Source: a virus (taxonomy: Duplodnaviria > Heunggongvirae > Uroviricota > Caudoviricetes). Taken from it: DNA of 8,645 nt. Below are positions 1-7,442 of this stretch, piece after piece (position 1 is the stretch's first letter; the number at the start of each line of letters is the position of its first letter). The stretch lies in the IMG/VR virus record IMGVR_UViG_2548876856_000015; one strand, given 5' to 3'. The position numbers were made by a program, and so were the translations under genes. The notes beneath the pieces were generated by a model, which saw only the letters and a list, made by a program, of their open reading frames with translations, did not search any database and had not been told where the DNA came from.

Positions 1-471
1 CTAGCAGTCAAACTCAACAACTAATTCTTCGGTAATATCGCTTAGGGAAACAATGCCTTTATATCCAGTCTCAACATACGGGACAACCCTCTCGCCCCAT
101 GCTTTTTCTTCTTTCCAAGAAGTCCATGGAATCAGTTTCTCGAACTTGCTTTCGTGAAGAAACAGTATTGAAATCTTATCACCTTGTTCGCGTTTAAGGA
201 TCTGAGTTGGAAAACATTTATAAGCATGCTCTTTCCAGAATCTAGTCCCATAGCATCTATAGTCGAAAAAAGACACGCAATTGCGCTGCCTAAAAAAACC
301 ATTAGATGTATTTCCAAATCTTGAAAATTGCAATAATTCCGAATTTGGAACCAAAGCTCCAGATTGTTTTATAAGGAGCATATTAGCTGCAGTAGTAACA
401 TGAAACACTTTTCCTGAAAGTGCAGATAAAATATCGTCGTTATACGTGATTTTGAGTTGATTGATTATCAT
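1..471 (-). CDS. Hypothetical accessory protein (AT-rich cargo ORF next to the int 3' end)
   Basis: ORF track 1..483 minus, 160 aa. The first codon at 483 is TTG; the first ATG is at 471..469 (MIINQ...). Stop codon occupies window positions 1-3. Visibly more AT-rich than the neighbouring int. No clear Shine-Dalgarno. No family recognised with confidence. Confidence 0.45.
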   Translation of the reverse strand: MIINQLKITYNDDILSALSGKVFHVTTAANMLLIKQSGALVPNSELLQFSRFGNTSNGFFRQRNCVSFFDYRCYGTRFWKEHAYKCFPTQILKREQGDKISILFLHESKFEKLIPWTSWKEEKAWGERVVPYVETGYKGIVSLSDITEELVVEFDC

Positions 472-571
472 ATTTTTTATCAAGTAACTATTGGCCTGTT
501 GCTGTTCATTAGCATAGCATGATGACTGCTATTGGCTGTGAGTTCAAGGTGGCGTTGGGACTCTTAAATAC

Positions 572-1699
572 TCACAACGCTACTTTGCTCCATCCTTTGC
601 CTCGGTCATCATGGTAACGATCGGTTTGCTGCTGGGTTTTATGGCCCAGTAACTTTCTGGTATCAACCCCTTGTTCCTTGTAAAGACGTTCAGATAAAGA
701 TCTTTGTTCATGAAAAGTTGCAGGAGTTCCAGTACCCCAATCAATTTCTGCCAGATCACGTGCCTTGCTAAAGTTCATCGTTAGTGTATTAGCTTTTACC
801 TGTGCGCCACGTTCAGCCTGTGATGTAGTACGGAAAAAATGCACTAAGTATGGGCTGACTGCGTAGTCACGGCAGCGAGCTACTACATCACGTAAACACC
901 AGTTGATAGCATTCAAACGTAAAGAAAGAGGGATAGCGATTTTGCTCCCGGTCTTTTCCTGAATGACGTGAAGATGATCCTCCCAAATATCACTAAATTT
1001 CATTTTGGATATATCTCCTAAACGCTGCCCAGTGACCAAAGCTAGGAGCATGGCATTTCCCATATAACGATGAGCGGCGTCTGCGATATCGAATATTTTT
1101 TTCCATTCTTCTAGGCTGAGGCGTTGACGGCTAATTTTCCTTCTGGGTTGCTTCGTTGCAAGAGCAGGGTTATACCCTGGTGGAACTTCGCCGTAATGCT
1201 GTGCTTCCTTAAACACATCGATCAATACAGACCTTACGACCTGGGCCATTCTAGGCTGTCCAGCAGAGATATACTCATCAAGTAATTGTGCTATATCTCT
1301 GACATCAACGGCTGATATCAACTTCAGTCCTGCTCGTTCCCTGAGCAAGGATACTGGTTTGGCTTTCTGTTTATAGGTGTTGAGCTTTATATCGCCACTT
1401 TTCAGTCTGTCTTCCTGGATTGCTTGATAGCGATCTAACCAGGTTGACGTTGTGATTGCTTTTCCTTTGCTGGTTGCGATCCTGTCACTGATAGCTAGAA
1501 TCTGCCGGGTTCTTTGCTCAGCTAGGCGTGTATTGGCCTCAGTGGCAATAGCAATGGCTTCAGCTTCGTTTGTGCCCAAAGAATGAAACTTCCCGGTCAC
1601 TGGATGCTTATATCGCCAATAAACTTTATTTACTTTTCTGCTATAGAGCGGATACAAGTTCGGGACTGAAACATTATTCTTACGTGGTCTGGCTGCCAT
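572..1699 (-). CDS. int: Tyrosine site-specific integrase (lambda Int family)
   Basis: 375 aa. N-terminus VPNLYPLY..YWRYKHPVTGKFHSLG resembles lambda Int LPPNLYIR..YCYRDPRTGKEFGLG (from memory). C-terminal catalytic region LLGHKTQQQTDRYHDDRG carries the His and Tyr of tyrosine recombinases. ATG at 1699..1697. Overlapped by xis. Confidence 0.9.
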   Translation of the reverse strand: MAARPRKNNVSVPNLYPLYSRKVNKVYWRYKHPVTGKFHSLGTNEAEAIAIATEANTRLAEQRTRQILAISDRIATSKGKAITTSTWLDRYQAIQEDRLKSGDIKLNTYKQKAKPVSLLRERAGLKLISAVDVRDIAQLLDEYISAGQPRMAQVVRSVLIDVFKEAQHYGEVPPGYNPALATKQPRRKISRQRLSLEEWKKIFDIADAAHRYMGNAMLLALVTGQRLGDISKMKFSDIWEDHLHVIQEKTGSKIAIPLSLRLNAINWCLRDVVARCRDYAVSPYLVHFFRTTSQAERGAQVKANTLTMNFSKARDLAEIDWGTGTPATFHEQRSLSERLYKEQGVDTRKLLGHKTQQQTDRYHDDRGKGWSKVAL

Positions 1700-1925
1700 T
1701 ACTTAAAATCCTTTGTAGAATAATAGAATCACTTTTCTTAATGACAGGAGTAACTAATTCCCCAACTAACTCTGCGTCCTCACGTACTCGCCATAGTCGA
1801 CCTTGTTTCATTGCCGGTGGACAAAATAAATTCTGCTTAGCATAATGACGCAATGTGGACACACTTGGAGGGTTACTCCTAAATTTTTCCGCAGCCCATT
1901 CCTCAAGTGTCAGCATTTGAAGCAT
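1680..1925 (-). CDS. xis: Excisionase (Xis/AlpA-like small DNA-binding protein)
   Basis: 81 aa, MLQMLTLEEWAAEKFRSNPPSVSTLRHYAKQ...GRLWRVREDA. Small basic protein immediately upstream of int, overlapping it by 20 nt (1680-1699). GAGG lies about 10 nt upstream of the ATG at 1925. Confidence 0.75.
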   Translation of the reverse strand: MLQMLTLEEWAAEKFRSNPPSVSTLRHYAKQNLFCPPAMKQGRLWRVREDAELVGELVTPVIKKSDSIILQRILSNGSQTT

Positions 1926-3744: not shown

Positions 3745-4437
3745 TTAATTATGTCTCTTAAGGGTTTGCGACTGACTGATTAAGACCTTTCCAAAGACCA
3801 TGAATCGGTGTTCGTTTTCGCTAGTAATTCCCCATTCACGGTAAATCTGGTTATCAGAAATCACCAGCAGTTTGTCAGGAATCATTTGAAGTCTTTTAAC
3901 GTATATTTTGTCATCAAAACCAAAGACATATATACCATCACCATCAAACTGATTGATGCTGACATCAACGAAGATGAGATCTCCTGGCTCAATGGTTGGA
4001 CACATACTGTCCCCACGAACGTTGATAACTTTGATGTGATTGGCTGGTCGTCCGCCGAACATTGATACAGCATTATCAGTTCTGTATTCGATGGCATGAA
4101 TCACATCAATGACATCACCGCCTTGGATAAGGCCATTTCCCGCACTGGCACTGATATCCAGCATTTCAATACGGAACACATCCTTCACCTGCGCAACATC
4201 CTCATTATTACTGTTTTTATATACAGTATTACTTTTGTGGGCAGAGGTAAAGAGATCAGCAATATCAACACCTAAGCTCTTGGCAATATTACTCAGTGTT
4301 TGTTCGGTAAATTGTTTTTGCTTACCCGTTTCTAAGCGCGAGATGTTCGCCGCATCTACTCCTATTGCTTCAGCGAGATCGGCGATTTTCATGTTCTTCG
4401 CTTGGCGAAGTTGTCTGACTCGGTTTCCTATGTTCAT
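3745..4437 (-). CDS. cI: cI-like prophage repressor (N-terminal HTH + C-terminal S24 LexA-like autopeptidase domain)
   Basis: 230 aa. N-terminal HTH_XRE-type segment VRQLRQAKNMKIADLAEAIGVDAANISRLETGK. C-terminal GDSMCPTIEPGDLIFVD (Ser nucleophile) and YVKRL (Lys) match the S24 family. Divergent from the cro-like gene. Confidence 0.9.
   Translation of the reverse strand: MNIGNRVRQLRQAKNMKIADLAEAIGVDAANISRLETGKQKQFTEQTLSNIAKSLGVDIADLFTSAHKSNTVYKNSNNEDVAQVKDVFRIEMLDISASAGNGLIQGGDVIDVIHAIEYRTDNAVSMFGGRPANHIKVINVRGDSMCPTIEPGDLIFVDVSINQFDGDGIYVFGFDDKIYVKRLQMIPDKLLVISDNQIYREWGITSENEHRFMVFGKVLISQSQTLKRHN
4209..4228. promoter_or_regulatory. LexA (SOS) box-like palindrome inside the cI coding sequence
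   Basis: TACTGTTTTTATATACAGTA matches CTGT-N8-ACAG with an AT-rich spacer and TA flanks; about 18 of 20 positions agree with the E. coli consensus TACTGTATATATATACAGTA (from memory). Only CTGT-N8-ACAG match found in a manual scan of the window. Confidence 0.4.
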
Positions 4438-4534: not shown

Positions 4535-4795
4535 ATGCAATCACTATTACGAAATGTGCGTAAGGCGCATGGTTTCACTTTGCAGCATGTTGCTGCGGGT
4601 GTTCAAGTCAATCCAGCGACGTTGAGTCGTATTGAGAGGCTGGAGCAGATTCCATCTATCGAGCTTGCAGAACGTTTAGCCAATTTTTTTAAGGGTGAAG
4701 TCAGCGAAATGCAGATTCTTTATCCGGCACGTTTTCAATCTAGCCAAAACCAGAATGGGTTTAAACCACAGGAACAGGAGGTGAACCGTGGGTAA
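4535..4795 (+). CDS. cro: Cro-like HTH (XRE-family) regulator
   Basis: 86 aa. HTH segment GFTLQHVAAGVQVNPATLSRIERLEQIPSIELAERLANFF. First rightward gene, divergent from cI. Stop TAA at 4793-4795 overlaps the next gene start. Confidence 0.8.
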   Translation: MQSLLRNVRKAHGFTLQHVAAGVQVNPATLSRIERLEQIPSIELAERLANFFKGEVSEMQILYPARFQSSQNQNGFKPQEQEVNRG

Positions 4796-6627: not shown

Positions 6628-7116
6628 ATGAGTCTGTTAAATGACGTTCAGAAATTCATTGAAGCCCATCCGGGGTGTACTTCCGGAGACATTGCGGATG
6701 CTTTTGCTGGTTACTCACGGCAGCGCGTTCTGCAGTCAGCAAGCAAGTTACGTCAGAGTGGACGTGTGGCTCACCGTTGTGAAGGAGATACACGCAGACA
6801 TTTCCCGCGCCTGACTGAGAGAGCGCAGGAGCCGAAACCACAACCAGTTCGTGAAACCAGACCTGTGCGTAATTTCTATGTCGGCACTAACGATCCCCGG
6901 GTGATTTTGTGCCTGACCCGCCAGGCGGAAGAACTGGAGTCCAGGGGCTTATACCGTCGTGCTGCAACCGTGTGGATGGCGGCATTCCGTGAAAGCCACT
7001 CCCAGCCAGAACGAAACAATTTTCTGGCGCGTCGTGAGCGGTGCTTACGGAAAAGCAGCAAGCGCGCTGCATCGGGTGAAGAGTGGTATCTGTCAGGGAA
7101 TTACGTGGGGGCTTAA
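6628..7116 (+). CDS. Hypothetical regulatory protein with a PerC-like C-terminal motif (tentative)
   Basis: ATG at 6628 preceded by AGGGGG (6616-6621); the ORF track starts at GTG 6622. The segment AEELESRGLYRRAATVWMAAF resembles the PerC-family motif as I recall it. The N-terminal ~60 aa look like a small winged-helix domain. Stop TAA overlaps the next start (TAATG at 7114-7118). Confidence 0.4.
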   Translation: MSLLNDVQKFIEAHPGCTSGDIADAFAGYSRQRVLQSASKLRQSGRVAHRCEGDTRRHFPRLTERAQEPKPQPVRETRPVRNFYVGTNDPRVILCLTRQAEELESRGLYRRAATVWMAAFRESHSQPERNNFLARRERCLRKSSKRAASGEEWYLSGNYVGA

Positions 7117-7442
7117 TGACGACGTTAACTCAATGCCAGCAGCAGGTGCTGGATATGCTGATTTCTTATCAGAAAGAACGTGGCTTCCCACCAACCAATC
7201 AGGAGGTGGCAACCATGCTGGGATACCGTTCGGTGAATGCAGCGGTGGAGCATCTTCGTGCTCTGGAGAAAAAAGGCGTCATCACGATAAAGCGTGGCGT
7301 GGCCCGGGGGATAACGCTTCATACCGCGGTGAAGGACGACGACAGCGAGGCGGTCGGGATTATCCGCTCACTGCTTGCCGGTGAGGAAAACGCCAGGCTG
7401 CGTGCAGCCCACTGGTTACATGAGAGGGGCCTGAAAGTATGA
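7116..7442 (+). CDS. LexA N-terminal DNA-binding-domain-like protein (no S24 peptidase domain)
   Basis: 108 aa from ATG 7116 (ORF track starts at 7083). LTQCQQQVLDMLISYQKERGFPPTNQEVATMLGYRSVNAAVEHLRALEKKGVITIKRGVARGITL aligns by eye with E. coli LexA residues ~1-70 ([65 protein letters not shown]). The C-terminus is short and has no Ser/Lys peptidase motifs. Confidence 0.65.
   Translation: MTTLTQCQQQVLDMLISYQKERGFPPTNQEVATMLGYRSVNAAVEHLRALEKKGVITIKRGVARGITLHTAVKDDDSEAVGIIRSLLAGEENARLRAAHWLHERGLKV

Follow-up and report, generated by a model that had tools for sequence, protein, structure and literature searches.

ADP-ribosylation of DNA and RNA by DarT, CmdT and their relatives has recently emerged as a mechanism of bacterial immunity; the ADP-ribosyltransferase (ART) superfamily and DarT-type defence are already known. 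AcrIF11, ModA/ModB of phage T4 and CmdT are short ARTs that depend on nicotinamide adenine dinucleotide (NAD+), and CmdT and DarT act on nucleic acids. To our knowledge, the characterised toxic transferases of the DarT/CmdT kind are each paired with a reversing or neutralising partner. Lit is a single-gene abortive-infection effector, a cell-death peptidase. Here we describe an open reading frame (ORF) at the left end of an 8,645-nt stretch of viral DNA (Caudoviricetes; IMG/VR virus record IMGVR_UViG_2548876856_000015), referred to below as the window. The ORF encodes a protein of 156 amino acids (aa) that is probably a solo NAD+-dependent enzyme of the ART fold, with a predicted site formed by H24, S67-F69-D70 and E134, and that would be an effector in phage or mobile-element conflict.

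The first letters of the window are the stop codon of the ORF, which lies 100 bp downstream of the integrase gene (int) with both genes on the minus strand. As mechanically listed, the ORF spans 1..483 (160 aa, from a TTG at 483). The alignment of homologues and the RefSeq annotation (WP_024232540.1, 'hypothetical protein') back the ATG as the start. The initial annotation, made from the sequence without database searches, had given 156 to 160 aa at 1-483; the ORF stood and the shorter product is favoured. It had also described the ORF as more AT-rich than int and as lacking a convincing ribosome-binding site (RBS), and both observations were borne out. The guanine-plus-cytosine (GC) content of the ORF is 37.2% (33.8% at third codon positions, GC3), versus 45.0% for int and 47.5% for the whole window, which was the proposed comparison with the rest of the prophage. 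No Shine-Dalgarno sequence was found ahead of either the TTG or the ATG (the sequence upstream of the latter reads ...CCAATAGTTACTTGATAAAAAAT-ATG), and the closest homologues likewise have none. The isoelectric point is 7.65, with a family median of 6.3, and says nothing on the substrate.

A homology search recovered 32 clusters of 42-99% identity, nearly all of 150-190 aa. An exhaustive profile search extended this to 571 representative clusters at E ≤ 1e-3, of which 297 were found at E ≤ 1e-10. The ratio of nonsynonymous to synonymous substitution rates (dN/dS) against the nearest homologues was 0.10-0.12, at a dS of about 1. Because of the number of homologous clusters and the low dN/dS, the ORF is a genuine gene under strong purifying selection and no chance reading frame.

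The structure of the protein was modelled with AlphaFold2 from an alignment of 29 sequences. The model had a mean predicted local distance difference test score (pLDDT) of 92.4 and a predicted template modelling score (pTM) of 0.88. It forms a single domain over the 156 aa, and its order of strands and helices fits the ART core, including the split beta-sheet. In the Foldseek search the best fold matches were transferases. SopF, TreX, three Tpt1 enzymes, Scabin, CARDS, OspC3, PARPs and TreTu stood further down the list, several phage ARTs that are uncharacterised, Bacillus phage G Gp233 among them, were also matched, and RES was a weak match. The structure prediction and fold search that the initial annotation had proposed as a check gave a confident model, by which the 156-aa protein is predicted to have an ART fold.

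Conservation was counted in a 105-member alignment reaching down to about 25% identity (Table 1). In the model, strands are formed by residues 65-70 and 134-138; H24 lies on beta1, S67-D70 on beta2 and E134 on beta5, so placed that these residues are predicted to occupy the three class-defining positions of ARTs. H24, on its predicted strand, pairs with the His of the YHFT motif of DarT and would be the NAD+-contacting His of beta1. Strand 65-70 takes the place of beta2, on which ARTs hold nicotinamide by an aromatic or Ser/Thr residue (the Y of H-Y-E or the S of R-S-E), and bears S67 (86%) and F69 (90%), with Y71 (62%) following; the alignment with DarT is not confident here. E134 opens strand 134-138 and pairs with the catalytic Glu of DarT only in a permissive, low-confidence hhalign run. 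Since D70 and E134 are strictly invariant and H24 is nearly so, catalysis is the likely role of the site.

The structure of DarT1 offers a guide to how such a site may work. In DarT1, H17 and T19 contact the adenosine ribose of NAD+ (H17 at its 2'-OH), F18 stacks on nicotinamide, R52 and D54 serve the pyrophosphate and proton transfer, S63 is in the 'Y' position and E152 is the ART glutamate (PMC11543638). The spacing from the His to the Arg is 37 residues here and 35 in DarT1 (H17, R52). By analogy with R52, D54 and S63 of DarT1, segment 61-72 is inferred to have the corresponding role. We propose that the beta1-alpha1 motif F23-H24-x-T26 ... I34 ... G38 would bind NAD+, and that R61, R63, S67, F69, D70 and R72 around beta2 would hold the pyrophosphate and nicotinamide and help to activate the acceptor. 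E134 on beta5 would then promote breakage of the bond between nicotinamide and ribose, so that ADP-ribose passes to a macromolecule. To judge from DarT, Tpt1 and CmdT, this acceptor is most likely a nucleic acid, with a protein next. The family also has conserved cysteines at two sites: C65, where beta2 begins (81% of members), and C86, within the KCxP motif (75%). Their conservation is unusual for ARTs, and they could be a redox- or metal-sensitive regulatory pair.

The nearest characterised relatives of the family are the DarT DNA ADP-ribosyltransferases (DUF4433, PF14487), the toxins of DarTG that modify thymidine or guanosine of single-stranded DNA. A DarT profile was built from 24 PF14487 proteins gathered from the DarT gene in an e14-like prophage of E. 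coli 181.1. Aligned with the family profile by hhalign, it gave probabilities of 63-76% and E-values of 2e-5 to 7e-5. At default stringency only residues 18-48 (about 30) were aligned, with the DarT motif r.YHFT.i.NLeSIi..GlLstN. The permissive run paired L..W...W and VVPyVEaGypG.I.L..I of the family with L.W..I...W and kMAElL...V....I of DarT; this low-confidence extension, which puts E134 on the DarT catalytic glutamate, is supportive only. The initial annotation had noted a faint likeness of the N-terminal segment to DarT/DUF4433-type motifs. That likeness holds, in that residues 21-40 align with the YHFT motif, but the protein is not a member of the DarT family. The Pfam DarT model gave no match to it even at E ≤ 10, and sub-threshold Pfam matches among the 105 members were to DarT in 3 (E ≥ 0.034, the best being 0.034) and to DUF7002 in 4. 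The DarT domain exceeds the protein in length by about 55 residues, the middle part of the protein could not be confidently aligned, and the DarT blocks VHDYVPFYF and FTDASANT have no counterpart in it. The two families share the H-x-T NAD-binding motif, whereas the 156-aa family has its own invariant SxFDYR and KCxP motifs. DarT also has a substrate loop with a base-recognising residue (H119 in DarT2, N104 in DarT1), and the corresponding region of the 156-aa protein does not align. Finally, DarT occurs with a DarG macrodomain or NADAR partner, and none was found at the ORF loci.

An ART fold may also serve other chemistry. The protein could be an NAD+-depleting glycohydrolase or phosphorylase (like the RES/MbcT or Tse6-type toxins), a Tpt1-like RNA 2'-phosphotransferase or RNA-repair enzyme, or a silent binding module. 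We consider this rather unlikely. Tpt1 requires an N-terminal RNA-binding lobe, which carries the R-H-R-R tetrad, and Tpt1/KptA enzymes are accordingly two-lobed, whereas the 156-aa protein is single-domain, lacks this lobe and has no Pfam or NCBIfam match. Neither Tpt1/KptA nor DUF952 (CC0527), another family of minimal ART-like proteins, was matched in Pfam; the protein instead bears the invariant beta5 glutamate typical of H-Y-E transferases. RES was only a weak structural match beside the transferases at the top of the list, and the conservation of D70, E134 and H24 argues against a silent module.

In keeping with the initial annotation, which could not place the ORF in a family, the Pfam, PHROGs, PADLOC and NCBIfam profile libraries gave no usable match to the 156-aa protein. 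The sole match was PHROG 13493 (E 0.21), and the Pfam and PADLOC searches, read to E ≤ 10, returned none. Thus no confident match to a routine phage or host housekeeping family emerged from the profile search that had been proposed. The known defence-protein models of PADLOC-DB v2.0.0, which dates from 2023 and does not cover later defence systems, were likewise not matched. Searches of PDB sequences with two family profiles gave chance-level matches. Among these a DUF4365 protein showed a striking match of 19 residues; it was not significant (E 0.8) and was set aside, as the fold evidence pointed elsewhere. All homologues in the databases were labelled 'hypothetical' and had no precomputed Pfam domain. 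Literature searches under the protein accession, DUF7002, DarT-like defence ARTs and e14 hotspots found no account of the family.

Clustered at 50% identity, the family comprises at least 571 clusters. Almost all members are single-domain proteins of 150-190 aa, and ten longer members were examined for extra domains, none of which was informative. They occur in Gamma-, Beta- and Deltaproteobacteria, Acidobacteriota, Planctomycetota, Gemmatimonadota, Elusimicrobia and others. Twenty of 5426 complete E. coli chromosomes carry a member, and these fall into two distinct mobile-element contexts. No member was found in 50,697 sequenced phage genomes, and 72,556 plasmids held just two copies, both truncated. 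Absence from phage genomes and near-absence from plasmids count against a typical phage early or anti-defence gene. The distribution favours a cargo of chromosomal islands and prophages, and what appears to be new is an unnamed, widely scattered family of minimal DarT-like ARTs, distinct, hitherto unannotated and with no reversing partner found at its loci.

These data bear on a second alternative, that the protein is a phage-side ART which is expressed with int and modifies a host or competitor protein, aiding the prophage or disabling host defence as T4 Alt, ModA and ModB or AcrIF11 do. AcrIF11, ModA/ModB and CmdT are likewise short ARTs on phages or prophages in phage-host conflict; none of them gave a significant match by structure or sequence. 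CmdT comes with both an antitoxin and a chaperone. AcrIF11 and the Mod proteins are phage-side factors, in contrast to a family that is absent from sequenced phage genomes. Small solo ARTs with such roles are known on mobile elements (PMC9503650). The ORF follows int directly, in the same orientation, and neither a terminator nor a clear promoter was found in between; the structural matches to phage ARTs such as Gp233 also fit this alternative. It is nevertheless unlikely. No homologue was present in the phage genomes searched, members reside mostly in bacterial chromosomes of very diverse phyla, where their neighbours are housekeeping or defence genes rather than those of phage early operons, and the cassette keeps its conserved leader where no integrase lies upstream.

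The limits of this cassette were read from a DNA alignment in which the window was compared with differently flanked loci from Pantoea and IMG/VR. Homology includes a leader of about 70 nt and ends about 8 bp past the stop codon. The cassette is about 545 bp of leader plus coding sequence (CDS) and holds one gene. Homology to other intE loci of the e14-like type restarts at positions 541-563, 10-30 bp beyond the int stop. A scan of the gap between int and the ORF detected no strict sigma-70 promoter and no terminator, and manual inspection of the conserved leader revealed no convincing -35/-10 pair. Rfam gave no match in the window.

To search for a partner, ORFs within 5 kb on either side of 35 family loci (genomes, metagenome-assembled genomes and viral contigs) were compared by all-against-all BLAST. 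No conserved partner gene was found in the 35 loci, and the only cluster present in more than three was the family itself. A phmmer search with the 410-aa macrodomain protein of E. coli 181.1 gave no match among 435 neighbouring ORFs, which, with a single query, is a weak test for a DarG-like partner. A generic type II toxin-antitoxin arrangement was not found, as the cassette holds one gene and the neighbours vary between loci.

In the closest homologues (76-78% identity; Pantoea and IMG/VR), a gene for 471-472 aa lies on the same strand 105 bp downstream of the ART gene. Its product had no Pfam, NCBIfam or PDB match. The lineage of the window lacks this gene, and one Pantoea genome carries it in split form. 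Ten further E. coli genomes, a second lineage, have an ART copy of 79% identity, with IS3 in place of the 472-aa gene, amid genes for ImmA/IrrE and helix-turn-helix (HTH) proteins and a P4-like integrase.

The flanks of the ORF in E. coli are int and a convergent gene for 1040 aa, neither of which is a DarG. The latter lies just left of the window, where the initial annotation had expected any partner, and takes up what remains of the icd-intE slot. It was considered as the partner and rejected: it is unrelated to the 1054-aa convergent neighbour in Gemmatimonadales, and it is found without the ORF in two E. coli records. Its protein has hydrophobic N-terminal helices and no Pfam, PADLOC, PDB or meaningful NCBIfam match, and its GC content is 45.9% versus 37.2% for the ORF. 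Copies of about 76% identity, without the ORF, occur on a plasmid and in another E. coli genomic island, there beside integrases, a HipA fragment and a DUF4238 gene. The gene is possibly an independent, uncharacterised defence gene. Between these two convergent cargo genes is a 426-bp spacer of 36% GC. A strong inverted repeat (CCGGCTGAGC...GCTCAGCCGG) directly follows the stop of the 1040-aa gene and, from its sequence, could be a shared terminator. The spacer also has one promoter-like site, on the minus strand at L001:9693-9666. From the variable 472-aa gene and the separately occurring 1040-aa gene it follows that the ORF and its leader alone are the functional unit.

Also unlikely is the alternative that the protein is the toxin of a toxin-antitoxin or other two-gene system whose partner went unrecognised. 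That partner might be the 472-aa gene, a small RNA or an antisense element encoded by the leader, or a host hydrolase acting in trans, for which a chromosomal macrodomain or NADAR protein would qualify. In favour of this, the DarT toxins, the nearest structural relatives of the 156-aa protein, are neutralised by DarG, the 471-472-aa gene is conserved in the closest homologues and the leader is conserved with the CDS, but the ART gene stays intact where the 472-aa gene is missing, split or replaced, no partner in the 35 loci was shared beyond close relatives, the one-query macrodomain search, weak as it is, matched nothing, and the window has no Rfam match.

The window is identical to a region in 10 of the 5426 complete E. 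coli genomes. In one of them, AMSHJX01, the order is icd, the 1040-aa hypothetical gene (+), the AT-rich spacer, the ORF (-), intE, xisE and lambdoid early genes. The first 228 bp past icd match the left end of e14 of K-12, and the element is an e14-like prophage integrated at icd. The initial annotation had placed the ORF as cargo between int and the attachment site. It does lie between int and icd, in a slot whose content varies by strain, but the 1040-aa convergent ORF intervenes between it and icd. The slots of four further strains are filled differently (Table 1), and across e14-like prophages this icd-intE position is a hotspot of polymorphic cargo. Lit and DarTG, which account for at least two of the fillings, are established defence or abortive-infection systems. 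Because the slot carries different defence genes in different strains, it provides the context for a defence role of the ORF. Lit resembles the 156-aa protein in position only: each is encoded as cargo of an e14-type prophage between icd/attL and intE. It is a zinc metalloprotease that cleaves EF-Tu, unrelated in fold and chemistry, with no sequence similarity to the 156-aa protein.

Table 1. Features of the window and of related loci. Positions without a prefix are those of the window; positions after an L number are those of the locus so designated. Fractions give conservation in the 105-member alignment.
Feature	Position	Strand	Remarks
CDS of the 156-aa stand-alone protein, predicted ART fold	1..471	-	stop 1-3, ATG 469-471
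Residues 131-139, PYVETGYKG	55..81	-	beta5; P131 101/105; E134 105/105 (codon 70-72), predicted ART catalytic glutamate; G136 96/105
C86	214..216	-	79/105
Residues 61-72, RQRNCVSFFDYR	256..291	-	loop and beta2, predicted phosphate/nicotinamide-binding, catalytic segment; R61 85/105, plus K in 9 (codon 289-291); C65 85/105 (codon 277-279); S67 90/105; F69 95/105; D70 105/105 (codon 262-264); R72 92/105
Residues 21-40, KVFHVTTAANMLLIKQSGAL	352..411	-	beta1 and alpha1, predicted NAD+-binding motif; F23 103/105; H24 104/105 (codon 400-402); T26 98/105 (codon 394-396), these three ≥93% conserved; I34 99/105
Conserved 5' leader, about 70 nt, part of cassette	472..540	-	homology begins at GCCAATAG (536)
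Junction of cassette and prophage backbone	541..571	.	e14-like homology resumes here
intE-type tyrosine integrase	572..1699	-	upstream of the ORF, same strand, no terminator between
xisE excisionase	1680..1925	-	context
1040-aa gene, E. coli AMSHJX01	L001:6452-9574	+	left of the window
Spacer	L001:9575-10000		left of the window
471-472-aa gene	L040:6576-7991
471-472-aa gene	L004:4486-5901
471-472-aa gene	L002:8577-9991
icd-intE slot, K-12			ymfD, ymfE, lit
icd-intE slot, E. coli 181.1	L050:2629-5798		448-aa DarT-family protein and 410-aa macrodomain protein
icd-intE slot, NCTC9038			hypothetical gene and 858-aa AAA ATPase
icd-intE slot, TUM1880			insertion sequence (IS) elements and three hypothetical genes

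Defence-type genes also occur near family members elsewhere. They encode Gabija GajA/GajB (at two Pseudoalteromonas loci), Shedu SduA and PD-T7-1/PD-T7-5-like (HipA-like) proteins. Further neighbours are a DUF4062 protein, a McrB-like AAA_5 ATPase, integrases, a colicin/CdiI/Tlde1 toxin-immunity island in Pantoea, and an Ea47/DUF2971 accessory region in a lambda-like Citrobacter prophage.

We favour the reading of the protein as a solo NAD+-dependent ART-fold effector, whose role would be superinfection exclusion or abortive infection, serving the lysogen or mobile element against other phages. As no dedicated antitoxin was detected, self-toxicity would be avoided through target specificity, low expression (no Shine-Dalgarno sequence) or activation dependent on infection. 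Several points weigh against this reading. No characterised family member turned up in literature and database searches, and an ART toxin without an antitoxin is unusual. At default settings the apparent sequence similarity to DarT spans only about 30 residues, and the assignment of E134 as the catalytic Glu comes from a low-confidence alignment and a predicted secondary-structure position. No promoter or RBS was identified for the ORF, so its expression in the lysogen cannot be taken as given; it may be co-transcribed with int during phage development, which would point to a phage-side role. The association with defence islands is suggestive and anecdotal, seen at about a third of some 31 non-redundant loci without a statistical background model. 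Among the neighbours are several housekeeping genes, and some of the PADLOC helicase matches may be ordinary DEAD-box helicases.

A more specific proposal, which we put forward tentatively as a possibility, is that the gene is a new single-gene anti-phage module: a minimal DarT-like ART without an antitoxin, carried on a cassette of about 0.5 kb in prophage and island defence hotspots of many phyla. The enzyme would then be harmless until infection, or specific for phage nucleic acid or protein.

Other features of the slot and the window were observed as well. The DarT in the slot of E. coli 181.1 (L050:2629-3975) is unusually long. Three homologues of its N-terminal DarT domain, P0267, P0275 and P0281 (313-385 aa), carry precomputed PF01966 (HD) alongside PF14487. 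From these homologues, the 448-aa protein could itself be a fusion of DarT and HD, with the large macrodomain protein as its partner. In the window, a RefSeq frameshifted hypothetical pseudogene of 54% GC (2586-2931) lies between a yfdR-like 5'-deoxynucleotidase gene (1980-2543) and the immunity region. The latter is divergent, with a 230-aa XRE/LexA-like repressor (3745-4437, -) and a Cro-like HTH protein (4535-4795, +). Past Cro are ymfL and genes for a replication-type HTH protein, PerC, a 108-aa LexA-family protein (7116-7442, RefSeq), RusA and KilA-N. The immunity region and the genes after it are ordinary lambdoid content.

The locus points to a family of wide range that has gone unannotated, with at least 571 clusters at 50% identity from Enterobacteria to Acidobacteriota and Planctomycetota; its members are proteins with a predicted minimal ART fold that travel alone. 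The family merits a profile in Pfam, DefenseFinder and PADLOC, and the icd-intE slot of e14-like prophages merits systematic mining as a defence hotspot. If active, these proteins would show how an ART stays safe without an antitoxin, whether by target specificity or by trigger-dependent activation. A compact NAD+-dependent effector would then join the defence repertoire, possibly with a new modification of nucleic acid or protein.
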